Program-made: the position numbers and the translations under genes
From: Cetorhinus maximus
Taxonomy: Eukaryota
NCBI RefSeq assembly: GCF_964194155.1
Contig: NC_135885.1
Span: forward strand, 39,928,001-39,992,000
Direction: 5' to 3'
Length of the DNA stretch: 64,000 nt
Notes under the pieces: generated by a model
Databases searched by the model: none
What the model was told of the DNA's origin: nothing
Seen by the model: only the letters and a program-made list of their open reading frames with translations
Shown: one piece after another, positions 1 through 63,657 of the stretch
How positions within the stretch are numbered: position 1 is the stretch's first letter
Layout: the number at the start of each line of letters is the position of its first letter

Positions 1-757
1 AGGTGGGGGTTGAGGAGTAGGGCGTGATGGAGGAGTGAACCAGGGTGTCCCGGAGGGAACGATCCCTACGGAATGCCGCCGGGGGGGGTGAAGGGAAGGT
101 ATGTGTTTGGTGGTGGCATCATGCTGGAGTCGGCGGAAATGGCAGAGGATGATCCTTTGAATTCGGAGGCTGGTGGGGTGATAAGTGAGGACAAGGGGGA
201 CCCTATCATGTTTCTGGGAGGGAGGAGAAGGCGTGAGGGCAGATGCGCGGGAGATGGGCCGGACACGGTTGAGGGCGCTGTCAACGACCGTGGGTGGAAA
301 ACCTCGGTTAAGTAAGAAGGAGGACATGACAGAGCAACTGTTTTTGAAGGTAGCATCATCAGAACAGATGCGACGGAGGCGAAGGAACTGAGAGAATGGG
401 ATGGAATCCTTATAGGAAGTGGGGTGTGAGGAGCTGTAGTCGAGGTAGCTGTGGGAGTCGGTAGGCTTGTAATGGATATTGGTGGACAGTCTATCACCAG
501 AAATTGAGACAGAGAGGTCAAGGAAGGGAAGGGAACTGTCAGAGATGGACCATGTGAAAATGATGGAGGGGTGGAAATTGGAAGCAAAATTAATAAAATT
601 TTCCAGGTCCCAACGAGAGCATGAGCAGCACCGAAGTAATCATCGATGTACCGGAGAAAGAGTTGTGGGAGGGGGCTGGAGTAGGACTGGAACAAGGAAT
701 GTTCCACATACCCCATAAAGAGACAGGCATAGCTGGGGCCCATGCGGGTACCCATAG
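1..757 (-). mobile_element. Penelope-like retroelement fragment (RT region, frameshifted), runs off the window start
   Basis: ORF 66..755 reads MGTRMGPSYACLFMG...FLRYIDDYFG (PLE RT motifs); closely similar in sequence to the copy at about 43680-44420. Confidence 0.9.
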
Positions 758-984
758 AGCCACTTGGCCTCCTTACTTTCTTTTATAATGAACTTAGTTA
801 TAAAAACACTTTGTCTTGGAAGTACACAAATAGGACTTTCAGATCCTAATGGTTTTGAGAATATTTATTAAGACTTTTTTAAGGATTGTTTAGGCAACAT
901 GTTTCCTACCTCTTGAGGAATAGCCAACGTTATTTAAATATTAAGAGTTGGATGATGTGCTGCTGAAGTGTTCAGGGCATGATT

Positions 985-8214: not shown

Positions 8215-8286
8215 GTATTTGCTGAAAAAAAGACACGTCGAAGCTTTTTGTCTTGCACTCAGGATAGTTCGCAAAATACCAATATA
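8215..8286 (-). repeat. Family-B hammerhead-bearing repeat fragment (core damaged)
   Basis: Reverse complement 'tatcctgagtgcaagacaaaaagcttcgacgtgtc' matches 36088-36126 with 3 nt deleted from CTGATGA. Confidence 0.75.
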
Positions 8287-8289
8287 TTT

Positions 8290-9110
8290 TTATTTATGCG
8301 ATGTGGGCTTCGCTGGCTAGGCCAGCATTTATTGCCGATCTCTAATTGCCCTTGAGAAAGTGGTGGTTAGCTGCCTTCTTGAACCATTGCAGTTCCTGTG
8401 GTGTAGGTACACCCACAGTGCTGTTAGGGAGGAGGCTCCAGGATCTTGACCCAGCAACAGTGAAGGAACAGCGATATATTTCCAAGTCAGGATGGTGAGT
8501 GACTTGGAGGGTAACTTGCAGGTCGTGGTGTTCCCATGTATCTGCTGCCCTTGTCTTCTAGATGGCAGTGGTCGTGGGTTTGGAAGGTGCTGCCTAAGGA
8601 GCCTTGGTGAATTTCTGCAGTGCATCTTGTAGATGGTACACACTGCTGCCACAGTTCGTTGGTGATGGGGAGAGTGAATACTTGTGGAAGGGGTAACAAT
8701 CAAGCCGGCTGCTTTGTCCTGGATGCTGTCAAGCTTCTTGAGTGTTGTTGGAACTGCACTCATCCAGGCAAGTGGAGAGTATTCCATCACGCTCCTGACT
8801 TGTGCCTTGTAGATGGTGGCTATGCTTTGGGGAGTCAGGAGGTGAGTTACTCGTCACAGGATTCCTAGCCTCTGCTTTTGTAGCTATGATGTTTATATGG
8901 CTCATTCAGTTCAGTTTCTGGTCAATGGTAACCCCCCAGGATGTTGATAGTGGGGCATTCAGTGATGGTAATGCCATTGAATGTCAAGGGGTGATGGTTA
9001 GATTCTCTCTTGTTGGAGATGGTCATTGTCTGGCACCTGTTACTTGCCACTTATCAGCCTAAGTTTGGATATTTTCCAGGTCTTGCTGCATTTGGGCATG
9101 GATTGCTTCA
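8290..9110 (-). mobile_element. LINE (CR1/L2-group, 'LINE-2nd family') 3' fragment
   Basis: ORF 8329..8790 MEYSPLAWMSAVPTTLKKLDSIQDKAA; 3' tail gggcaattag...aataaatgctggcctagccagc. Confidence 0.85.
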
Positions 9111-9609: not shown

Positions 9610-10105
9610 AAGAGGGGGAACAACAACTTAAATTGGTTGTCAGCACTCTTTTCTCATACAGTATAAGATTGTCAGTCGAGCTTGCAGTATGGCACACTTG
9701 TGTGTACTGGAAGCTACATATATTAATACACGGGCCCTGTTTTTTGCAGACAGAAAGAACATGTGCACACAATATGCTGTTTCAGCTAAACAAAATAAGT
9801 GGCAGCCATTCGCTGATTCATTCCCCAGGGCAATGCCTTGACCAATCGGGCTCAAGCTGCCTGGTTTAAATTTAAACAATGCTTGGCAGTTAAATGTCAG
9901 TCATCATCACTGGTGCATTCTCTGTGGCAACACCTCTACTTATAAGCGTCGACTTACCAACCAATCAGCACTCTTCTCATGCAGTATAAATTGTTGTTTC
10001 TGCCTTATATTGGTATCTTGCAGTGCCTTGATGAGTGAAAGACATAAAGCTTCGACATGTCTCTTTTTTTTAGCAATACTCAAGTTCTGTACTGCCAAAT
10101 GACCA
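9610..10105 (+). mobile_element. Longer family-B repeat unit (pseudo-LTR-like) ending in a degenerate hammerhead motif at 10023-10058
   Basis: 'ccaatcagcactcttctcatgcagtataaattgttgtttc...cttgatgagtgaaagacataaagcttcgacatgtctc...caagttctgtact' matches 36046-36165. Confidence 0.7.
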
Positions 10106-11082
10106 ATTGCATTTAGAAGTCTTGTGAAGGATCCTCTGTAGTAGAGAGTTCATAATACAATAGAACTTTATAGTAAGTTTGAGTGTGATGTGGCTAAGCC
10201 TGAAACTGGGGTCTTAAATAAATCCAATTACAGAAATGCATGAGGTGTGTTGGCTGAGATAAATTTGGAAATTGGATTAAAAGATATGACAGTAGATGCG
10301 CAATGGTAAATATTTAAAGAAATAATTCATAATTTTCAACAAATATACATTCCTTAGGAATAAACTCCACTAGAAAAGTAATCCATCCATGGTTAATGCA
10401 AGAGGTTAAGAATAATATTAGATTAAAAGAGGAGACTTAAAATGTTGCCAAATAAATAGTAAGCCTTAGAATTGGAAGGGTTTTAAGAATCAGCAAAGGA
10501 TGGCCAAGAAGTTGGTAGAGAAAATAGAATATGGATTAAACTAGCAAGAACTACAAAAACAGGTTGCAAGAGCTTTTGGAGCTATGTTAAAAGGAAGAGT
10601 TAATGAAAGTGAATGTGGGTCCCTTGAAGCAGCAGGAGAACTTATAATAGGAAATAAGGAAATGGCAGAGATGTTAAACAATTTTGTAAGGTAGTGGAAA
10701 AATTAATTGGGCAAAAAGCCAACAAATACCCTGTACCTGATTGCCTACATCCTTGGGTTTTAAAAGAGGTAGCTATAAAGATAGTAGATGTATTGGTTTT
10801 AACCTTCTGGAGTTCCCTAAATTCTAGAATAGCCCTTGTGGATTGGAAGGTAGCAATTGTAACCCCACTGTTAAAATAGAAGAGAAAAGGAAAACTGGGA
10901 GTTATAGGCCAGTTAGCCTGACATCAGTAGTAGGGGAATGATAGAACCTTTGTTGAGGTTGTGGTGACAGGGCATTTGGAATATCACATTATGATTAGGC
11001 AGAATCAACACAATTTTATGAAAGACAAATTGTGGTTGACAAATCTGTTAGAGTTTTTTGAGGGTATAATTAGAGTAGATAA

Positions 11083-11524: not shown

Positions 11525-11669
11525 AGTAGATAACAGATAACCAGTGGATGTAGTGTATTTGAATTTTCAGAAGGCATTCAGTATGGTGCCACACAAGCAG
11601 TTGTTGTGCAAGATTAAGGCTCATGGGATTGGGGGCAATATATTAGCATGCACTGCTAATATATAAGAT

Positions 11670-12008
11670 ACACTGCAGGAATTCACCAAGGCTCCTTAGA
11701 CAGTGCTTTCCAAACCCATGACCACTACCACCTAGAAGGACAAGGGCAGCAGATAGATGGGAACACCACCACCTGGAAGTTCCCCTCCAAGTCACTCACC
11801 ATCCTGACTTGGAAATATATCGCCGTTCCTTCACTGTCGCTGGGTCAAAATCCTGGAACTCCCTTCCTAACAGCACTGTGGGTGTACCTACACCACATGG
11901 TTCAAGAAGGCAGCTCACCATCACCTTCTCAAGGGCAGCTAGGGATGGGCAATAAATGCTGGCCCAGCCAGTGAAGCTCACATCCCATGAATGAATGAAC
12001 AAAAAAAA
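11670..12008 (+). mobile_element. LINE-2nd family 3' end nested in CR1
   Basis: Same 3' region and tail (aataaatgctggcccagccagtgaagctcacatcccatgaatgaa) as 8290-9110 and 38340-39390. Confidence 0.85.
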
Positions 12009-14312: not shown

Positions 14313-15985
14313 TTGTTTTTTTAATTCATTCACGGGACTTGGGCTTCGCTGGCTAGGCCAGCATTTATTGCCTAACCCTAGCTGTCCTTGAGAAGGTGGT
14401 GGGGAGTTGCCTTCTTGAACCACTACAGTCCATGTGGTGTAAGTACATCCACAGTGCTGTTAGTAAGGGAGTTCCCAGATTTTGACCCAGCGACAGTGAA
14501 GGAACAGCGATATATTTCCAAGTCAGGATAGTGAGTGACTTCGAAGGGAACTTCTAGGTGGTGGTGTTCCCATCTGCCTGCTGCCCTTGTCCTTCCAGAT
14601 GATAGCGGTCATGGGTTTGGAAGGTGCTATCTAAGGAGGCTTGGTGAATCCCTGCAATGCATCTTGTAGATGGTACACAATGCTATTACTGTGTCGGTGG
14701 TGGAGGGAGTGAATGTTCATGGATGGGGTGCCAATCAAGCGGGCTGCTTTGTCCGGGACAGTGTCAAACTTCTTGAGTGTTATGGGAGCTGCACTCATCC
14801 AGGCAAGTGGGGAGTATTCCTTCACACTCCTGATTTGTGCCTTGTAGATGATGGACAGGCTCTGGGGAGTCAGGAGGTGTGTTACTTGTGCGCTTGTAGC
14901 CACAGTATTTATATGGCTAGTCCAGTTCAGGTTTTGGTCAATGGTAACCCCCCAAGGATGTTGATAGTGGGGGATTCAGTGATGGTAATGCTATTGACTG
15001 TCAAGAGACAATGGTTGGATTCTGCCTTGTTGGAGATGGTCATTGCCTGGCACTTGTGTGGCGCAAATGTTACTTGCCACTTGTCACCCAAGCCTGGATA
15101 TTGTCTAGGTCTTGCTGCATTGGAACATGGGCTGCTTCAGTATCTGAGGAGTCACGAATGGTGCTGAACATCGTGCAATCATCAGCGAACATCCCCACTT
15201 CTGACCTTATGATGGAAGGAAGGTCATTAACGAAGCAGCTGAAGATGGTTGGGCTAAGGACACTAGCCTGAGGAACTCCAGCAGTGATGTCCTGGAGCTG
15301 AGGTGACTGACTTCCAACAGCCACAAAACCATCTTCCTTTGTGCTTTGTTCCCCCTGATTCCTGTTGACTCCAGATTTTCTAGGGCTCCTTGATGCTACA
15401 CTTGGTCAAATGCAGCCTTGATGTCAAGGGCAGTCACTCTCACCTCACCTTGGGAGTTCAGCTCTTTTGTCCACGTTTGAACCAAGGCTGTAATGAGGTC
15501 AGGAGCTGAGTGGCCATGGTGGAACCCAAACTGGACGTCAGTGAGCAAGTTGTTGCTAAGCAAATGCTGCTTGATGGCACTGTTGATGACCCCTTCCAAT
15601 ACTTTACTGATGATAGAGAGTAAACTGAAGGGGCGGTAATTAGCTGGGTTGGATTTGTCCTACTTTTTGTGCACAGGACATACCTGGTCAATTTTCCACA
15701 TAGCCTGGTAGTTGCCAGTGTTGTTCCTGTACTGGAACAATTGGCTAGGGGCGCGGCAAGTTCTAGAGCACAAGTCTTCAGTACTATTGCCGGAATATTG
15801 TCAGGCTCCTTAGCCTTTGCACTATCCAGTGCCTTTAGCCGTTTCTTGATATCACATGGAGTGAATTGAATTGGCTGTAGACTGGCATCTGTGTTGCTGG
15901 GGACCACCAGAGGAGGCCGAGATGGATCATCCACTTGGCACTTCTGGCTGAAAATTGTAGCAAATGCTTCAGCCTTATCTTCTGC
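14313..15985 (-). mobile_element. LINE-2nd family, 1.7 kb RT fragment
   Basis: ALDIKAAFDQV, GVPQASVLSPTIFSCFVNDLP, MFADDCT motifs in minus ORFs. Confidence 0.9.
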
Positions 15986-35680: not shown

Positions 35681-35953
35681 AGAAACCAAGTAATGTCACC
35701 CCTGCCTACTTAAACTGCACAAAAAGCAATCCACCCCACTCATCAACAACATGAAAATATTGTTTCCATTTGTAATGCCTATTCAATGAGGTAAGAATTT
35801 GAGCACACATCCCACCCTGATTTCGGAACAGGTGCTTGTGTTTCACTCTTGGTCTCTTAAATAGTACTTCTAAACCAATTTGAATTTCATTTCTCCCCAT
35901 TTTCCTTGCTAAAGCCAGACTAACCAACTGTCCATATTACTGAAAAAAGAGAC

Positions 35954-35989
35954 ATGTCAAAGCTTTTCATCATGCACTCATCAGGACAT
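35954..35989 (-). ncRNA. Minimal type-I hammerhead ribozyme motif (family B), core intact
   Basis: Reverse complement ATGTC-CTGATGA-GT gcatg AT-GAAA-AGCT-TT-GACAT: stem I ATGTC/GACAT, CUGAUGA and GAAA cores, palindromic AAGCTT stem III. Confidence 0.7.
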
Positions 35990-36087
35990 TCGCAAGAATA
36001 CCAATATAGGGGGGGAAACAATCATTTATATTGTATACTTCACAAACAGTATAAATTGTTGTTTTCCCCTCATATTGGTGTTCTTTC

Positions 36088-36123
36088 GTGTCCTGATGAG
36101 TGCAAAACAAAAAGCTTCGACAT
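36088..36123 (+). ncRNA. Hammerhead motif (family B), GAAA mutated to AAAA
   Basis: GTGTC-CTGATGA-GT gcaaa AC-AAAA-AGCT-TC-GACAT. Confidence 0.6.
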
Positions 36124-36958
36124 GTCTCTTTCTTCGGCAATACTCATGTTCTGTACTACCGGACGATTATCTGTCCCTAGATCATTGCCAAGTGCGTTTC
36201 CAAAATATAACCTCTGATTCTAAAACCTCCTTATTCTTCAAAAATGAATATCTGTCTCTGATTCTCTTTCAAGCACCTCATCTTCTTCCAAACCTCTCAC
36301 CTTTCCTTTAGAATCCCCATTCTCTATCATACCATCCATAGTACCCTCTCTCTTTTCCACCCTCAAAGTCCACTTACGCACTGAGTGATGTCTCATTGTC
36401 AGTTATTTCAATCTCCATCTCAACTTGTCTTCCCCTGATTTCTCTTCCCTCCTGAATTTCTTAAACCTCTCCCTCTGTTAAGCTCCCCTACCATTTCCAC
36501 AGCCTCTCCTTCGACCTTATCATCTCCTGTGGCCTCTCTAAATCAATGATCTTGATCACAGATGAGGACCTTTCCAATCGCATCCTTAACGGCCTTACCA
36601 CCCACATCTTAGCTACTTCAACCCCATTTCTTTCTGCACCCACCTTGAAATAACTCTCCAACCACCCCACCCACCTTCACCTCGTGCTCCCCAGAGGATG
36701 GCATCGGAGGCCAGGGGTGTGTGTGTTGGAGGTCAAAACTGATGGCCCTCACCTCGTCTTCCCGGTAGTTAATTGGAAATTTATTTTAGCTCATATAGGA
36801 TTAGATGTCAGGAAAGCAATCTGAAACACAGGCAGTAGAATGAGGTTGAGAGAGGTGGTGGTGAAGTAGAGATGGGTATCATCAGAATATATGTGGAACC
36901 TGGTGTCTTCGGATTATATCTATGGAACACTAATGTAGCATAATGCGTTAATAGAACA

Positions 36959-38339: not shown

Positions 38340-39620
38340 TGGCTTTTTTTTAATTCATTCTTAGGATGTGGGCATCACTGGCTGGGCCAGCATTTAGCCC
38401 ATCCCTAGTGCCCTTGAAAAGGTGGTGATGAGCTGCCTTCTTGAACTGCTGCTGTCCGTGTGGTGTAGGTACACCCACAGTGCTGTTAGGAAAGGAGTTC
38501 CAGGATTTTGACCCAGCGACAGTGAAGGAATGGCGATATATTTCCAAGTCAAGATGGTGAGTGGCTTGGAGGGGAGCATCCAGGTGGTGGTGTTCCCATG
38601 TGTCTGCTGCCCTGGTCCTTCTGGATGGTAGTGGTCGTGAGTTTGGAAGGCGCTGTCTAAGGAGGCAGTATATTTTGTAGATGTTAGACACTGCTGCCAT
38701 TGTGCGCCGGTGGTGGAGGCAGTGAATTTTTATGGATGTGGTGCCAATCAAGCGGGCTGCTTCGTCCTGGATAGTGTCAAGCTTCATGAGTGTTGTGGGA
38801 GCTGCACTCATCCAGGCAAGTGGGGAGTATTCCATCACACTCCTGACTTGTGCCTTGTAGATGGTGGACAGGCTTTGGAAAGTCAGGAGCCGAGTTACTC
38901 GCTGCAGGATTCCTAGCTTCTGACCTGCTCTTGTAGCCACAGTATTTATATGGTTAGTCCAGTTCAGTTTCTGGTCAACGGTAACCCCCCAGGATGATGA
39001 TAGTGGGGGATTTGGCAATGGTAATGCCAGTGAATGTCATGGGGTGATGGTTAGATTCTCTCTTGTTGGTCATTGCCTGACACTTGTGTGGCGTGAATGT
39101 TACTTGCCACTTGTCAACCCAAGTCTGGATATTGTCCAGGTCTTGCTGCATTTGAACATGGACTGTTTCAGCACCTGAGGAATCGCGAATGGTGCTGAGC
39201 ATTGTGCAAACATCAGCGAACATCCTCACTTCTGACCTTATAGATGGAAGGAAGGTCATAGATGAAGCAGCTAAAGATGGTTGGGCCTAGGAAACTATCC
39301 TGAGGAACTCCTGTAGTGATGTTCTGGAGCTGAGATGATTGACCTCCAACAATCACAACCATCTTCCTTTGTGCTATGTATGACTCCAATTGCCCTTGAA
39401 TAGGTGGTGGTGAGCCACTATCTTGAACCACTGCAGTCCATGTGGTGTAGGTACACCCACAGTGCTGTTAGGGAGGGAGTTCCAGGGTTTTGACCCAGCA
39501 ACAGTGAAGGAACAGTGATATATTTCCAAGTCAGGATGGTGACTAGCTTGGAGGACAACTTCCAGGTGGTAGCGTTCTCATGCATCTGTTGCCCTTGCCC
39601 TTCGAGGTGGTGGAGAATGC
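38340..39620 (-). mobile_element. LINE-2nd family fragments (two adjacent copies)
   Basis: ORF 38350..39018 QKLNWTNHINTVATRAGQKLGIL...YKAQVRSVMEYSPLAW; GVPQDSFLGP. Confidence 0.9.
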
Positions 39621-39639
39621 TGGTTGGAAGGTATTTTGG

Positions 39640-40482
39640 AAGGACTTCAAGGGGACAGAGATAGGCTGGTGGAATAGGCAGACGTGTGGCAGATGCAATT
39701 TAGTGCAAAGAACTGTGATTGGTAGGAAGAATGAGGAGAGGCAATATAAAATAAAGAGTGCAATTCTAAAGGAGGTGCAGGAGCAGAGAGACTTGTGGAT
39801 ATATGTGCACAAATTGTTGAAGGTGGCAGGACAGTTTGAGAAGACAGTTAATAAGGTATATGGGATCCTGGGCTTTAGAAATAGAGGCATAGACTACAAA
39901 AACAAGGAAGTTGTGTTGAATTTCTATAATACATTAGTTCAGCCTCAATTGGAGCATTGTGTCCAATGCTGGATACCGCAGTTTAGAAGGATGTAAAGGC
40001 ATTACAGAGGGTGCAGAAAAGATTGACTAGAATGGTCCTGGAGATGAGAGACTTCAGTTACATTAATAGATTGTGAAGGTGTGCTGTTGTCTTTAGAGAA
40101 GAGAAGGTTGCGAGGGGATTTGTTAGAAATGTTCAAAATCATGAGGGGTCTAGGTAGAGGAGATAGTGAGGAACTGTTCCCATTTGCAGAAGGATCAAGA
40201 GTTAATGACACGAATTTAAGATTATTGGCAAAAGAACCAAAAGTGAAATGAGGAAAAACTTCTTACACAGCGCATGATTAGGATCTGGAATGCACTGCCT
40301 GGATAGAGTGAGGTCCAATCGTGGCTTTCAAAAGTTAATTGGATAAGCAACAGAAGAGAAACAATTTTCAGGGCCACAGGGTAAAGGCAGATCAGTGGGA
40401 TTAGCTGAGTAGCTCTTACAGAGAGCCAGCATGGACAAGAGGGGGTAAATGGCCTTCTTCTCTGCTGTAACCATTCTATGGT
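39640..40482 (+). mobile_element. CR1 3' fragment
   Basis: ORF 39580 VQEQRDLWIYVHK...YNTLVQPQLEHCVQCW; tail ccattctatggttcta. Confidence 0.85.
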
Positions 40483-40861
40483 TCTAGATGCCATTTGTGA
40501 GTTGCCACAAATGAAAAAAAATCAGCATCCTTCTATCAATTTCCAGTCATTTTTGTGTGGGTTCTCCCAAACTACCGCTGTAACTGCAGCATAAAATTGA
40601 CAGAAATCCTGGAGAAATGATGTAAATAGCTGTTTCTCCTGGTTCCCTGCTGAAGTTAAGGTGGGAGAGTGGGGAACCCCCATGTGTAAATCCTAGACAG
40701 AAGCCAAGTTGGATTGTCCACAAAAACATGTGTGGGAATCGTGATGCACGATTAAATCACACCCATTCAATGTAATGCAGATCATCCTTGTGCTTCCCAT
40801 CATTATCATAATGCATGTTCATTGGCTACATACATCAGCAGGGGGTCCAATATTGTTAGTT

Positions 40862-41290
40862 GCAAGCACTACTTAAAGATAGACTGTACCACTCAAAGCT
40901 AGACTGCATCGCTTAACGCTAGCCTGCACAATTTAAAGCTAGCCTGCGTAGTATAAAGGGTTAATGTTAAATATGTAAATATACAGTCTACATCATCAGT
41001 GACATAACATCACATGACAACAGAGCATGGAGACAGGTAGTTCTATGTAAAGCCTCATGCTAAGTCTGTATTGTACATACTTAATATAATGTTCAATAAA
41101 AAGGTAAAGTTTACCAACAGCCCTGACTCCAGCAGTATCTTTAAATCCACATCATGAACAGCTCCCTCTAAGACCCACAATGACGATAACAGAGCCCGCA
41201 CTAATTAAAGCTAGCCCGCACTAATTAAAGCTAGCCCGCACTAATTAAAGCTAGCCCGCACTAATTAAAGCTAGCCTGCACTAATTAAGG
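40862..41290 (+). repeat. 20-bp tandem array (AAAGCTAGCCCGCACTAATT) split by an LTR
   Basis: About 4.5 near-perfect units at 41193-41288; about 4 degenerate units at 40865-40946. Confidence 0.9.
40945..41191 (+). mobile_element. Short solo LTR (247 bp)
   Basis: TG...ATAACA termini, internal AATAAA, flanks TAGCC/GAGCC (5-bp TSD with one mismatch). Confidence 0.65.
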
Positions 41291-43330
41291 AAGATGCATT
41301 GTGTCTGCCAACATCATTCGGAGCAGTGTTGTGTGACAGAAAACAGTGGCTGACCATGGGACCAAGGTTTTCCAATGATGCACTGGAGGTCTTGGTGGAG
41401 GAGGTGGGAAAGAGGGAGAGATGTCCCCTACATGGGGTATTGGGTGGAGGGCAGTAGACCCTCCAGACACACAAAGAGAAGGCAGTGGGAGCAGATAGCT
41501 GTGGAGGTAAATGCCACAAATTTAAAACCTGGATACAGTGCCTCAAGATGTTCAGTGACATCATACAAATGGGCAAGGTCAGTGAATGCATCTTTAAATG
41601 CCATATCCCTATAACTGCATCACTAGCCTCAGCCACGGACCAATTTACTATTCAGCTACAAACAAACAATCTCTTACAATTAGGACCCATACCTAACATT
41701 ATATGCTTCACCTCACCCTCAGGAGAGGCGGGTGGAGATGGTGCCAAACACTGGGGCCTGGGGGCTGGATGGGGGTAGGCCCGGGAGCTGGGTTGGGGCA
41801 GTGGTGGGGCCTGGGCTTGGTGTTGCAAATGGAGTTTCTTGTCATCCAGGCCTGAGCAGCCAGAGCTTCAGACCTGAAAGAGCAGCTTTAAAACTATTGG
41901 AACCGTCAGCCTGACAGTTCCAATTTTTTTTAGCTGATTTTTCAGGTCAGTATCATTCAGTTACTGCGCTGCTGCCTCTGACCTTCAGGCAGCTTTGTGA
42001 TTCCAATTTTTTTTTAAAAGCCTGCCAGAAAACCATGGAGCTGCCCAAAGGTCAGCAGCAGTTCCTATTTGCAGCTACTGTCATGAGAGTGCTCGCAGCT
42101 GAATATTTGCTTGAAAAATGGTAAGTCAAATGCCTGAAATCATTTTAGAGCCAATTGGATTCTGGGGCGGTGGGGTGGTGGGGAGTGGGGAGATCGGGAG
42201 GTGGGGAGATGGGGGGTGGAGTGTTGAGGGGCAGGGCTGGTGGGAAGGTGGGGGGGTGGTGAGTGGGGATGGTGGGGTAAGGGGGTTGTAGGGGTCACTT
42301 TTAAGGCTTAGTGCCACAAAATTAAATACTGTACATGTCTCAAAATTCCCTTCTGAATTTAATCTAGTATATAAATAGCAGTCTAAATTTTCATTATACT
42401 CTAAAGCAGACACAATTTTGATGAAATGCTGTGTTGATGCATCAGAGGTTTGGGAATTTTAGGCCTCATCAAAATAAATATAAGAAACTAAAAACTGGGA
42501 GTGATGCAAAACTCACTATCGTCCATGTTATTATTCTTGTAAAATCTGGGGATGGAATCCCTACTTGTCACTAAGATATTGCTTAAAGAAAGATTTTAAA
42601 AATCTCTACTCCATCCTATGTTCACCCCAGGTAGGCTGTAAATTCAGTGTACAACAATTCGTATGACAGCTTCTGGTGAAGGGGAAGCAATCTAGTTTTT
42701 GAGTTAAGGCCGTACTGGGTTTTTGTACCATGCATCATTCTTCTCTGAAAAATTTAGATCAACAATTCAACCCACATTTTTCCTGAGTTGCTGGGAGATG
42801 TCTGATTGACAAATCCTGGGGATAGTGTCATTAGTGTAAAAGAGGCAAGTGAAATTTATGGTATATTGTGGGTTGGTGCCAGAGAAGTCAGAATGATAAG
42901 GTTGTATTAGCTACAGAGTTGAATTGTTTGTAAATGTAGTGATTTCTTTGTAGCCACTTTCCTGATGTCAGTTATGTGATTAATCAGCTCTTGATTAATC
43001 ATCCTTAGAGAATCAGCATTGGGCCTCCAATTTCACCATTGTCACTCTGCCTACTGCATGCAGATGTAATGAAAAAATGACAAAACCTACATTAATGCAG
43101 CACCTTTCACAATGTCCCAAATTGCTTTACAGCCAGTTCAATACTTCTGAAGTGTAGTCACTGGTATAATGTAGGCAATGTTGTCAAATGGTGGAGCAGG
43201 CTCAAGGGGCTGAATGGCCTACTCCTGCTCCTAATATGAATGTTTCAACCTGATAGTCTCCTAGCCTTGGACGGCCCGCTTCTACCTCCTACACAAACTA
43301 CACAAACAGGACTGTCCCAGCAGACCGATT

Positions 43331-44850
43331 GTGTCAGCCTGTTCCTGCCCCACGGAACTCATTTCTTGCTATCTTGACTCCATTCTCTCTCCCCTTGTCC
43401 AGTCCCTTCCCAGCTCCATCCGTGATTCCTCTGACACACTACATCATATCAACAATTTTCAGTTCCCTGGCCCCAACCGCCTCCTCTTCACCATGGACGT
43501 CCAATCCCTCTACACCTCCATCCCCCACCGGGATGGTCTGAGGGCCCTTAGCATCTTCCTTGAACAGAGGCCTGAACAATCCCCAACCACCACTACTCTC
43601 CTCCATCTGGCTGAACTTGTTCTCACACTGAACAATTTCTCCTTTAACTCCTCTCACTTCCTCCAAATAAAAGGTGTGGCTATGGATACCCGCATGGGCC
43701 CCAGCTATGCCTGTCTCTTTATGGGATATGTGGAACATTCCTTGTTCCAGTCCTACTCCGGCCCCCTCCCACAACTCTTTCTCCGGTACATCGATGACTA
43801 CTTTGGTGCTGCTTCATGCTCTCGTCTGGACCTGGAAAAATTTATTAATTTTGCTTCCAATCTCCACCCCTCCATCATTTTCACATGGTCCATCTCTGAC
43901 ACTTACCTTTCCTTCCTTGACCTCTCTGTCTCAATTTCTGGTGATAGACTGCCCACCAGTATCCATTACAAGCCTACCGACTCCCACAGCTACCTCGACT
44001 ACAGCTCCTCACACCCCACTTCCTGTAAGGACTCCATCCCATTCTCTCAGTTCCTTCGCCTCCGTCGCATCTGTTCTGATGATGCCACTTTCAAAAACAG
44101 TTCCTCTGACATGTCTTCCTTAACAGAGGTTTTCCACCCACGGTGGTTGACAGGGCCCTCAACCGTGTCCGGCCCATCTCCCGCGCATCCGCCCTCACGC
44201 CTTCTCCTCCCTCCCAGAAACATGATAGGGTCCCCCTTGTCCTCACTTATCACCCCACCAGCCTCCGCATTCAAAGGTTCATCCTCCGCCATTTCCGCCA
44301 ACTCCAGCATGATGCCACCACCAAACACATCTTCCCTTCACCCCCCCTGGAGACATTCCGCAGGGATCATTCCCTCCGGGACACCCTGGTCCCCTCCTCC
44401 ATCACCCCCTACACCTCAACCCCCTCCAACAGCACCTTCCCATGCAACCGCAGAAGGTGCAACACCTGCCCCTTTACTTCCCCTCTCCTCACCGTCCAAG
44501 GGCCCAAACACTCCTTTCAAGTGAAGCAGCATTTCACTTGCATTTCCCTCAGTTTAGACTACTGCATTCGTTGCTCCCAATGCGGTTTCCTCTACATTGG
44601 AGAGACCAAACGCAGACTGGGTGACCACTTTGCAGAACACCTTCGGTCTGTCCGCAAGCATTACCCAGACCTCCCTGTCGCTTGCCATTTCAACACTCCA
44701 CCCTGCTCTCATGCCCACATGTCCGTCCTTGGCCTGCTGCATTGTTCCAGTGAAGCTCAACGCAAACTGGAGGAACAGCACCTCATCTTCCGACTAGGTA
44801 CTTTACAGCCTTCCGGACTGAATATTGAGTTCAACAATTTTAGATCATGA
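43331..44850 (+). pseudogene. PLE RT-GIY-YIG ORF with one frameshift near 44120
   Basis: ORFs 43331.. and 44143..44850 join if ~7 nt, present in the copy at 1-757, are restored. Confidence 0.85.
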
Positions 44851-45226
44851 ACTCTCTCCTCCATCCCCACCCCCTTTCCGATCCCCCCCTTTTTTTTCCA
44901 ATAATTTATATAGATTTTTCTTTTCCCACCTATTTCCCACCTATTTTTAAATGTATTTCCATCCATTGTTTTATCTCTACCTTTTAGACTATTTCGATTC
45001 CTTCACCCCACCCCACCCCCACTGGGGCTATCTGTACCTTGCTTGTCCTGCTTTCTACCCTTAATTAGCACATTCCTTAGATAATATCACCACCTTCAAC
45101 ACCTCTTTGTCCTTTTGTCTATGACATCTTTTGGCTATCTCCACCTATCACTGGCCCTCTATCCAGCTCTACTTGTCCCACCCCCCTTCAACCAGCTTAT
45201 ATTTCACCTCTCTTCTATTTTTACTT

Positions 45227-45265
45227 AGTTCTGTTGAAGAGTCATACGGACTCGAAATGTTAACT
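45227..45265 (+). ncRNA. Hammerhead-like motif (family A) in the PLE 3' pLTR, variant core CTGTTGA
   Basis: AGTT-CTGTTGA-A-GAGTC atacg GACTC-GAAA-TG-TT-AACT. Confidence 0.65.
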
Positions 45266-46589
45266 GCGTTCCTCTCCGCAGATGCTGCCAGACCTGCTGA
45301 GTTTTTCCAGGTATTTTTATTTTTGTTTTGGATTTCCAGCATCCGCAGTTTTTTGCTTTTATCTTATGTGTGTTTCTATGTTCGTATGTCATTCTGGATG
45401 GATGAGATGAGCTGGGTTAGATGGTCTTTGTCATCCATAATTATCTTGCGAATAGAGAGTGGAATCATGGCTAGAGTTCTGTTTATTTTGTTGCTAATGG
45501 AAGTTTACTGTGACCAGGCTTTGTGGGGTGAAATTGCCAGGACAGCAGTGCCTAATGGGCTTATAGTGAATCAGTAACCTGTTTTACACTCCACGTGATT
45601 CTCAAGAGTCTTTTCCATTTGTTTCAATCTTGTCCATTTGTCTACTTATCTAATATCCCATTCTATCTTGGTGCTTTTATGAGTTTTTTGAGGTATTTAA
45701 ATATTGTGATAAAGTTTTATTGCATGGTAGATATTGAAAATATCTTATAGTGAGAAGCAGCAATCAGCAGTCTTCAGACCTGCTGATCAAGAAATCACAG
45801 ATACAATTGGGAACCATTCAGTCTTTGTCCTCAAGCCTCTTAAAAATTGTGTTACACAGAAATATCTGAGGGCTCCAATGTTTCTCACTGACAGTGAAGA
45901 CCTATGCTGTTCAATCATTCCATTTTGTTGCTCAGGAGTTATTTGATCTTTCTATCCTGTGAGATTACTGATAAAATAGAATCCAATTATACCCCTTGTG
46001 TGAAATAATTATATTGAATTATATCATGCGCCCAAGCAGGAGAAAGTCTTCTACTTTTTCTACAGAATGGAAAAGCTCTTGTGCAGTTTATCTGGGTTGC
46101 AAGTATTGAATCTTTCCTCCAGATATGAATTTACTATCATTATGTCCATATGGTGCAATGTGCAGAATATGTTAATGAGGGCTGAGGCAGTCACCCAAAC
46201 CATTGTTATCGTCTACACAATGTTATAAGTAACTAATGGGATATCTTCCTGTCAAATTAACAATATTGCACGATGCTGTTAAAGTAAAATTTGTACTCTC
46301 TGGTTTGTTTAATAGTTGCACTGGGATCACCTATAAGGCATACACAAACTAACACTGCATTATATCGTTGCTGTTCTTAATATTAATGACCCATGCTGCT
46401 TATATACCAAGATGACATTTGTAATCAGGTGCCAACAATGGGCATTATCATTTCACTAGGACCGTGCTGTGATTGGTGAATTGATTGGGGAATCTTGAGG
46501 AGGAAGGTTAAAGTTGTTGGCGGTGGGGGGCACAGAATAAGGGGTCCAGAAATAAGACAAGCACCAGGGCCTATGATTTCTGTACCTGG

Positions 46590-54544: not shown

Positions 54545-54920
54545 TTTTTTTTAAATTTGTTCATGAGATGTGAGCATCATTGGCAAGGCCAGCATTTATT
54601 TTCCATCCTTAATTGCCCTTGAGAAGCTGGTGATGAGCCAGTTTATTGAACCACTGCATTCCGTGTGGTGTAGGAACACCCTACAATGCTATTAGAAAGA
54701 TCCAGAATTTTGACCCAGTGACTTCGAAGAAACAGTGAGATCGTTCCAAGTCAAGATGGGACTTGGAGGGGAACTTGCAGGTGGTGGTGCTTCCATGCAC
54801 CTATTGCCCTCGTCTTTCCAGGTGCCAGGGGTTGTAGGTTCGGAGGATGTTGTTGAAGTTTGGCAAGTTGCTGCAGTGCATCTTGTAGAATGGTGTCTAT
54901 TTGGATGTGGAGCCCTCTTG
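54545..54920 (-). mobile_element. LINE-2nd family 3' fragment
   Basis: Same tail and body as 38340-38700. Confidence 0.8.
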
Positions 54921-57299: not shown

Positions 57300-57960
57300 T
57301 ATGGGTGTTGGAGGGGAGAGGAGATGGGTGCCGGAGGGGAAAAGAGACAGGGTTGCTGGTGGGGAGAGGAGACAAGGTGCTGGTGGGGAGAGGAGATCGG
57401 GGTGCTGGTGGGGAGAGGAGATCGGGGTGCTGGTGGGGAGAGGAGACAAGGTGCTGGTGGGGAGAGGAGATCGGGGTGCTGGTGGGGAGAGGAGACAAGG
57501 TGCTGGTGGGGAGAGGAGACAGGGGTACAGGAAAAGAGAGGAGACAGGGGTGCAGAGGGGAGAGTAGACAGGGGTGCGGGAGGGGAGAGGAGACAGTGGC
57601 GTGGGAGGGGAGAGGAGAGGAGATAGGGGTACAGGAGGGGAGAGGAGATGGGGTGCAGAGGGGAGAGAAGACAGGGATGCTTGGGTGAGAGGAGACAGGG
57701 GGGCGGGAGGGGAGAGGAGACAGGGGTGCAGGTGGGGCGAAGAGACAGGGGTGCAGGAGGGGAGAGGAGAGGAGATAGGAGTGCAAAGGGGAGAGGAGAC
57801 AGGGGTGCATGAGGGGAGAGGAGACGGGGTGTGGGAGGGGAGTGGAGCTGGTAGTGCTGGGGAGAGGAGACAGGAGTGCTGGGGGATGTGGAGCCAAGTG
57901 TGCAAGTGGGAGAGGATCTGGGGGTGCAGGGGTCTGGAGACAGGATTTCAGATGGGAAGA
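57300..57960 (+). repeat. G/A-rich minisatellite, 21-25 bp unit (GGTGCTGGTGGGGAGAGGAGA(CAA/TCGG))
   Basis: Direct inspection; generates the spurious repetitive ORFs in the track. Confidence 0.95.
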
Positions 57961-62748: not shown

Positions 62749-62981
62749 TAAAAGCAAAATACTGCGGATGCTGGAAATCTGAAACAAAAACAAAAACTGC
62801 TGGAAAAACTCAGCAGGTCTGACAGCATCTGTGGAGAGGAAGACAGAGTTAACGTTTCGAGTCCGTATGGCTCTTCTTCAGAGCTCAGATGAAGAGTCAT
62901 ACGGACTCGAAACGTTAACTCTGTCTCCCTCTCCACAGATGCTGTCAGACCTGCTGAGTTTTTCCAGCAGTTTTTGTTTTT
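62749..62981. mobile_element. Family-A fold-back mini-element (99-bp arms, no spacer) with a hammerhead motif on each strand
   Basis: TSD GCTACACATTC(C/T)ACA at 62734-62748 and 62982-62996; arms 62785-62883 and 62884-62982 centred on GAGCTC. Confidence 0.92.
62846..62886 (-). ncRNA. Minimal type-I hammerhead motif (family A), core intact
   Basis: Reverse complement GAGCT-CTGAAGA-A-GAGCC atacg GACTC-GAAA-CG-TT-AACTC; palindromic AACGTT stem III. Confidence 0.7.
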
Positions 62982-63434
62982 GCTACACATTCTACAGTTT
63001 TGTTAGCATTATGTGAATTATGTAGAAAAATCATCATTCTTTAATTTCTCATTAGAAGAGCAATTTTACCCCAACCCACTCACAAAGGTATGTTGTTTTA
63101 ATTCTATTTTTGATACAGCTATGATTTAGCCTCCAATGTGCCCAATGAAATTAAATGTTTACGCTGCTAATTGCCTCTCCTATGGGTGACAGGCATGTGT
63201 GGCGATTGCTGGAAAAAAAATCTTAATTTTGCTTTTAGTGTAAAAGTGCTGCAGAGCACAGCAATGCTTTTTTAGAGTTCACAATGAACCAATTCATTTA
63301 GTTTCAGTTCATTTCAGCTGCTATCATCCATTTCTTTTATACTACCATTGGAGTTCACTGTTATACCTGAACACAGTGACTTTCAATCCAGAACAAGGTA
63401 CCGATCAAAATCAGAATTTCTGTACACATTTTAA

Positions 63435-63657
63435 TATCGCCGAGAAAGGAGACATGTTACTGAAGCTACTCATCTTGCACTGATCAGGGCAAACACAAGA
63501 ATGCCAAATTTCAAACAATCAACGATTTGTACGACAGGAGAGCACCTCTTTTCTCCTGTGGTAGAAGTTGTTGGTATTCTTGCGAGTGTCCTGATGAGTA
63601 CAAGTCAAAAAGCTTAAACGTGTCTCTTTTCTCAGCAATACGCAAGTCCTGTACCAC
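63435..63657. mobile_element. Second family-B fold-back mini-element (older)
   Basis: Plus arm GTGTC-CTGATGA-GTacaagtc-AAAA-AGCT-T at 63586-63615; inverted arm ~63435-63540. Confidence 0.75.

Follow-up and report, generated by a model that had tools for sequence, protein, structure and literature searches.

Minimal hammerhead ribozymes have been described in the pseudo-LTRs (pLTRs) of the fish Penelope-like elements (PLEs) Xena, Poseidon and Neptune (Cervera and de la Pena, 2014; PMC4209133). These motifs have a palindromic stem III, cleave weakly as dimers and occur as opposite-strand pairs 100-700 bp apart (PMC4209133); the work of Lunse et al. on dimer hammerheads is presented in a review (PMC6765202). 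An inverted pLTR, a tail, a target duplication, a TATA motif and a pLTR coding for the first residues of the protein are also on record (PMC3846280; PMC8557442), and the Penelope/Poseidon group has been defined by the lack of a CX2-5CxxC linker, a CCHH motif in the endonuclease (EN) domain and a DKG motif (PMC8557442). For PAc, the Poseidon element of Anolis carolinensis, uncut RNA was shown to act as template in vitro (Frangieh et al., 2024; PMC11167929). Non-LTR retrozymes are defined as tandem and non-coding in a study that included one cartilaginous-fish genome (10.64898/2026.07.22.740005).

The window analyzed here, 64,000 nucleotides of Cetorhinus maximus DNA (NC_135885.1, positions 39,928,001 to 39,992,000), contains at 35935-36170 a head-to-head fold-back of 236 bp with a minimal type-I hammerhead in either arm. 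A reading made from the letters of the window alone (the sequence-only reading) had placed this fold-back at 35935..36168; the fold-back stands, but its end has to be moved, since the unit reaches 36170 including a one-sided 28-nt tail. We consider it very probable that the fold-back is the truncated, head-to-head doubled pLTR of an endonuclease-positive PLE, likely laid down in one insertion, and that its hammerheads are ordinary minimal ones, predicted to act only as dimers and likely inert at this place. The parts of the locus are as follows:

35928..35933, plus strand: candidate target-site duplication CTGTCC, left copy
35935..36037, minus strand: inverted arm, a 5'-truncated pLTR with a short 3' end without tail (end offset 0)
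35953..35990, minus strand: minimal type-I hammerhead of the left arm, core letters intact
between 35959 and 35958, minus strand: predicted cut of the left-arm hammerhead, with the ATG at 35955-35953
36025..36030, minus strand: TATAAA motif of the left arm, read from sequence
36038..36142, plus strand: direct arm, a 5'-truncated pLTR, 88.8% to the 3' end of the long copy L032
36050..36055, plus strand: TATAAA motif of the right arm, read likewise, ~45 nt before the core
36087..36124, plus strand: minimal type-I hammerhead of the right arm, with G12A at 36109 and N17 at 36118, predicted dead
36122-36124, plus strand: ORF start ATG of the right arm
36143..36170, plus strand: one-sided ~28-nt tail, equal to ORF codons ~8-17 in tandem junctions
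36171..36176, plus strand: candidate target-site duplication CTGTCC, right copy

The two arms meet at their 5' ends with no spacer in between and can be aligned over ~100 nt, and the stretch 35935-36142 matches its own reverse complement with 78.7% over 211 nt (E 3e-43), so that the inverted arms of about 100 bp that had been claimed are present here; the claim does not extend to the copies near 63.4k (72.6% over 73 nt, different subfamilies) or to those at 8230 and 10023, which lie 1.77 kb apart. In the left arm the hammerhead shows a G10.1-U11.1 wobble and U17, both of them CpG-decay products, while the right arm lacks the complete core owing to G12A and has lost by truncation the upstream CCAAT motifs of longer copies. 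The RNA of the locus is predicted to fold with -118.9 kcal/mol (z -17, none of 200 shuffles as low), and both strands are predicted to form a hairpin, at about -119 kcal/mol with z between -16 and -17; a read-through RNA would bury both hammerhead motifs in it. According to this model the hammerhead of the locus is likely inert, and the earlier notion of two-stranded ribozyme hairpins as a working device is not borne out: each strand carries only a single ribozyme in sense orientation, that of the right arm is altered by G12A, and in the predicted hairpin the whole motif is paired. That the locus serves the host as a ribozyme switch or functional hairpin RNA and is kept for that reason is hardly credible. 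All core letters are still there in the left arm, yet the two arms share 85% likeness, where 53 copies of the same subfamily have a median of 81% (maximum 95%), and both G12A in the right arm and the burial of the motif in the hairpin speak against such a function. A check of all core letters, stems and the palindrome is passed by 35 of 177 sampled copies, a sample biased by the search patterns, so that one passing copy among the six of the window, namely the left arm of this locus, is expected. None of the RNA runs contained more than 0.09 of the words of the locus, and the contigs of two possible runs lie on the arms only, nearly all with less than 99% identity, indicating that they stem from relatives of the family and not from this locus.

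The motif family to which both arms belong (family B) has on the sense strand a 5-bp stem I, CUGAUGA, a 2-bp stem II with a 5-nt loop, GAAA, the self-complementary AAGCUU at the position of stem III, position 17 and the 3' strand of stem I. The six copies that had been named in the window (8230, 10023, 35954, 36088, 63452 and 63586) are all present at these places, and the consensus built from them by eye was reproduced in an ungapped 38-column alignment of 150 of the 177 copies, which shares its core, its stem II of 2 bp and its palindrome AAGCTT. Judged by its letters, the minimal type-I hammerhead core CUGANGA...GAAA with an NUH triplet is present at the level of the family and in the left arm. 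Hammerheads cleave after NUH triplets, and the bases at position 17 of the 177 extracted copies (C in 94, T in 52, A in 27 and G in 4) are in line with this rule. The core 17-mer has 12,936 exact matches in the 3.99-Gb genome. When exact patterns were searched with the two letters C11.1-G12 left free, 8,022 genome copies were found, with CG in 1,433, TG in 3,806, CA in 2,172 and other letters in 611, whereas the reversed patterns used as control gave 0; this split is the pattern of CpG decay and supports an ancestral GAAA, as the sequence-only reading had proposed from ACAAAA and ATGAAA copies. The decay is asymmetric on the sense strand (TG 3,806 vs. CA 2,172, TG retaining G12), a subfamily founder or a context effect being possible causes. 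A master element without G12 was considered on account of ~22 of 30 fetched loci with ACAAAA, but was rejected because that number is query-driven and the genome counts show both decay products.

Stem I pairing, the absence of which had been named as a point against the hammerhead, is seen in 83.9% of cells, and paired cells make up 92.3% for stem II and 94.9% for the palindromic stem III, where AAGCTT had been read. The outer pair of stem I is GU in 46, UA in 27, CG in 25, AU in 14, UG in 11, GC in 2 and unpaired in 12 of 137 distinct rows. Covariation is confined to one pair with ~4 subfamily events, decay being the main source of variation in the remaining pairs, and shuffles were not exceeded by two of the five whole-structure measures (233 and 244 of 500), so that the evidence from covariation is modest. 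An Rfam search gave no hammerhead match at E<=5. For the natural copy L040 the domain-swapped dimer was modeled at -9.7 kcal/mol vs. -13.4 for an alternative co-fold, which speaks neither for nor against the dimer. A transcript running from one pLTR through the next would carry two motifs, which could swap their AAGCUU stem III and cleave slowly, possibly aided by protein, as in published work.

Extension in the 5' direction, proposed earlier as a check for a linked RT/GIY-YIG ORF, recovered such an ORF on the same strand as the motif. At 29 other fetched family B loci the 3' end is common and fixed while the 5' truncation varies, and upstream of the hammerhead, on its strand, the RT motifs DKG, GLPKxHK, SFD, QxDGVAMGSPL and YVDD are followed by a C-terminal domain VVYEFQCQC..YVGRT. 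A stop-free stretch of 435 residues has 809 relatives, with up to 59% identity among the top matches (P0002); the relative P0016 lies above the Pfam cut-offs for RVT_1 and GIY-YIG, and the fragments of family B itself lie below them. To judge from these decayed copies, the parent is an EN+ PLE with a single ORF that joins a PLE-type RT to a C-terminal GIY-YIG domain, and its length is estimated at ~2.7-2.9 kb. In keeping with EN+ PLEs, copies are 5'-truncated, the pLTR occurs in partial tandems or inverted, and there is a one-sided tail of ~28 nt together with a variable target duplication. The PLE-type origin put forward by the sequence-only reading is thus supported, as the motif closes, on the 3' side, an element with RT and GIY-YIG; by contrast, the label “retrozyme-like” has to be dropped, as this element of ~2.7-2.9 kb is coding and not tandem here. 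The ORF has no CX2-5CxxC linker before the EN, so that the Cys-rich mark of the Neptune clade is absent, and the EN carries CxC...QH...QH with two histidines, which indicates the Penelope/Poseidon group (criteria of PMC8557442 and PMC3846280). Placement by these motifs (no CX2-5CxxC linker, CCHH in the EN, DKG) accordingly points to that group. Of 62,828 candidates 69 were scored, and none of these has a full-length stop-free ORF, one candidate locus having two stop-free ORF pieces; this absence and the median likeness of 81% suggest that the family is old and likely inactive. It may already be named in Repbase/Dfam.

The head-to-head layout is not peculiar to the 35.9k locus. In a set of 105 copies, from which duplicated loci and one misplaced match had been dropped, neighboring copies face head-to-head in 28 cases, lie tail-to-tail in 1 and share a strand in 3; with a larger set that overlaps this one the three numbers became 35, 1 and 4, and inspection by eye of the first 100 listed 17-mer matches gave 13 head-to-head pairs and 1 tail-to-tail within 3 kb. 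The nearly identical flanks of L047 and L048 (G000:C1, 6.8 kb apart) mark a local duplication. The 3' ends are bimodal, at the short end and ~28 nt further, and one short arm is combined with one tailed arm in 20 of the 28 head-to-head pairs, and 11 of these 20 were found by a search biased toward the tail, its query including part of it. Flank duplications scoring at least 8 were seen in 14/28 pairs vs. 14/756 mismatched flank pairings. At the 35.9k locus the 6-bp CTGTCC duplication is weak and alone not significant, since 155 of 756 control pairings match its score.

These features would be accounted for if the endonuclease cut both target strands and the RT started at two internal RNA sites ~28 nt apart, giving one short and one tailed arm, whereupon both cDNAs would stop early and be joined 5' to 5'. 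By analogy with PAc (PMC11167929) we favor this two-strand priming from two internal start sites as the more probable course. The model put forward in PMC3846280 for head-to-head repeats, in which the same element is inverted by self-priming on an antisense template or by fold-back of the cDNA, is possible and clearly less probable. It would explain why the two arms of an insertion usually resemble each other more closely than they resemble other copies (the partner arm fell into the top similarity quarter in 15 of 24 testable pairs and outside it in 9, 24 of 35 pairs being testable and the 35.9k locus being among the 11 left out), and it would suit the arms at 35.9k, which begin within ~6 nt of one another without a spacer. 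However, most pairs have very unequal arm lengths and different 3' ends, the short and tailed ends fitting two RT start sites (PMC11167929) better, and position 17 differs between the arms in four pairs, as does the subfamily at 63.4k. Priming on both cut strands is therefore preferred over self-priming on an antisense template. Four duplication-flanked pairs (L002, L018, L028 and L049) have A17 in the short and C17 in the tailed arm; as a rule this distribution was discarded, being weak and biased (8/21 vs. 12/44).

Paired arms would also result if a non-autonomous fold-back mini-element of MITE-like or retrozyme-like type, bearing a ribozyme on both strands, had multiplied as a whole, and the strong hairpin as well as several short fold-backs in the genome with motif spacings of 34-200 nt could be taken in its favor. 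Yet the spacing from motif to motif ranges from 34 to 1,976 nt and the junction differs in each pair, indicating that the short hairpin did not spread as a unit; longer arms extend into the ORF, the target duplications differ in length and sequence, and same-strand neighbors make up only 4 of 40 pairs. Uniform length, fixed terminal inverted repeats and a fixed target duplication, which would speak for the MITE origin mentioned in the sequence-only reading, were not found, and we regard such a mini-element as very improbable. The six copies of the window were matched at 8219-8286(-), 9973-10096(+), 35935-36036(-), 36038-36160(+), 63435-63507(-) and 63571-63657(+); those outside the 35.9k locus are listed here together with the second PLE of the window:

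148-773, minus strand: Neptune-type PLE, second piece
8219..8286, minus strand: short inverted arm, its inner side interrupted by later repeats (about 8289-9110)
9664..10115, plus strand: tailed arm with the ORF C-terminus (9659-9783), the 3' UTR and a decayed hammerhead (10022-10059)
43277-45334, plus strand: Neptune-type PLE region
63420..63540, minus strand: inverted arm of a different stem-I subfamily with a decayed core
63541..63657, plus strand: direct arm carrying both A17 and G12A and resembling the other subfamily over its first ~30 nt

The copies at 8.2k and 10.0k have the short-plus-tail geometry with later repeats in between and are probably the two arms of one insertion that these repeats have split; the arm at 9664..10115 matches L032 with 81.7% over 459 nt. 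A dispersed repeat that is 70-90% alike among 8289-9110, 14325-15326, 38351-39643, 54547-54858 and 11659-12007 has one copy nested in the 8.2k-10.1k insertion; we take it to resemble a SINE/CR1-type element. At 63.4k the two arms, 72.6% alike over 73 nt, come from different stem-I subfamilies, and no clear target duplication was found; the right arm looks chimeric, and the mixed arms may go back to two templates, two insertions or later conversion. The sequence-only reading had seen no RT in the window, which holds for the RT domain of family B but neither for its ORF C-terminus at 9659-9783 (tblastn E 7.8e-4) nor for another Penelope-like RT at 43277-44643(+) and 148-773(-). The latter is part of a Neptune-type ORF at 43277-44850 with RT, a CNRRRCNTC linker and a GIY-YIG-type domain, and a hammerhead of the other family of the window (family A) lies at 45227-45325, ~390 nt past its stop. 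Family A probably forms the end of the Neptune-type PLE, and with its motif behind a different ORF with a CNRRRCNTC linker it is unrelated to family B, as had been supposed. A family A hairpin at 62825-62942 gave sub-threshold scores against the Rfam microRNA models mir-3202 and MIR529, which are likely an artefact of the long inverted repeat. Tandem arrays occupy 57302-57889 (period ~25 nt) and 40846-41299 (period ~20 nt).

The hammerhead of family B overlaps the start of the ORF. A pattern for the ORF 5' end gave 108 matches, of which 90, the copies reaching the ORF start, were examined. In tandem junctions the motif and the tail continue directly into the ORF, so that the bases after the predicted cut and the 28-nt tail are its first codons, and the ATG follows the predicted cut after 3 nt in the main subfamily and ~6 nt in others. 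It shares the reading frame of the ORF in 29 of the 43 junction copies where an ATG can be recognized, the remaining 14 being off by 1-2 nt, and the N-terminal peptide of L114, MSLFSAILKFCTTKQLFIYLRQRY, matches the N-termini of the database proteins P0010 and P0012. In longer copies TATAAA stands ~45 nt before the core in 9/18 and CCAAT is found in 16/18. The 5' ends do not cluster at the predicted cut (3 of 90 within 3 nt) and the whole core is kept in 46/90. A ribozyme-cut RNA as template was rejected, with a hazard per 7-nt bin of 0.053 at the cut vs. 0-0.10 elsewhere and the whole core in those 46 of 90 copies. Since inserted copies carry the uncut motif, uncut RNA was copied, and cleavage is not required for templating.

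Upstream of the ribozyme there is thus a CCAAT-TATA promoter-like region and downstream of it the start codon of the RT, the predicted cut falling 3-6 nt ahead of the AUG in every subfamily seen. One speculative and rather improbable reading of this position is that in the PLE lineage of family B the ribozyme is a translation switch and not a tool of retrotransposition. If this were true, cleavage would turn the capped 5' end into an almost leaderless mRNA with a 5'-OH, while the uncut RNA would be the template for insertion. Cap-independent translation driven by a ribozyme has been reported for RNA viruses (PMC13725137), and a literature search at the level of titles and abstracts found no such claim for a PLE. 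The predicted cut just before the start codon bears on the role of PLE hammerheads.

Compared with the fish PLE hammerheads (PMC4209133), family B has the same type-I core, short stem I, G10.1-C11.1 pair and palindromic 15.2-16.2 region, and as in these PLEs there are thousands of dispersed truncated copies and dual motifs on opposite strands. Its stem II, by contrast, has 2 bp and a 5-nt loop vs. 6-8 bp in the families described there, and it is without the extra base that those hammerheads carry between positions 9 and 10.1. Pen2a_Av (Arkhipova et al., 2013; PMC3846280) likewise shows an inverted pLTR, a one-sided tail of ~30 bp, a target duplication of 8-10 bp, a TATA motif in the pLTR and a pLTR and tail that code for the first ORF residues, and is described without a Cys-rich linker. 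The pLTR of family B codes for ~7 residues (17 with the tail) vs. 12 (22) in Pen2a_Av, which belongs to another host and differs in sequence; that paper does not report a search for hammerheads. In PAc the hammerhead also overlaps the ORF start, two RT start sites bound the tail, both target strands are cut and extended, and the template is uncut RNA, whereas the cut is placed differently, 26 nt past the start codon in PAc and, by prediction, 3-6 nt before it in family B (Frangieh et al., 2024; PMC11167929). With the non-LTR retrozymes family B shares a dimer-type type-I hammerhead of PLE origin, but those are head-to-tail tandem and non-coding, while family B is a coding PLE with head-to-head stumps and does not form head-to-tail tandem non-coding units with a hammerhead in each (10.64898/2026.07.22.740005). 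The locus is a clean genomic example of the two-start-site tail model and shows templating from uncut RNA. Otherwise it matters little, adding to a well-described class a Penelope family that is abundant and decayed and whose hammerhead is very small. The head-to-head layout itself is already published (PMC3846280; PMC8557442; PMC4209133) and is also matched by PMC11167929, and family B departs little from known PLEs, the small differences being its 2-bp stem II and the predicted cut just before the start codon.
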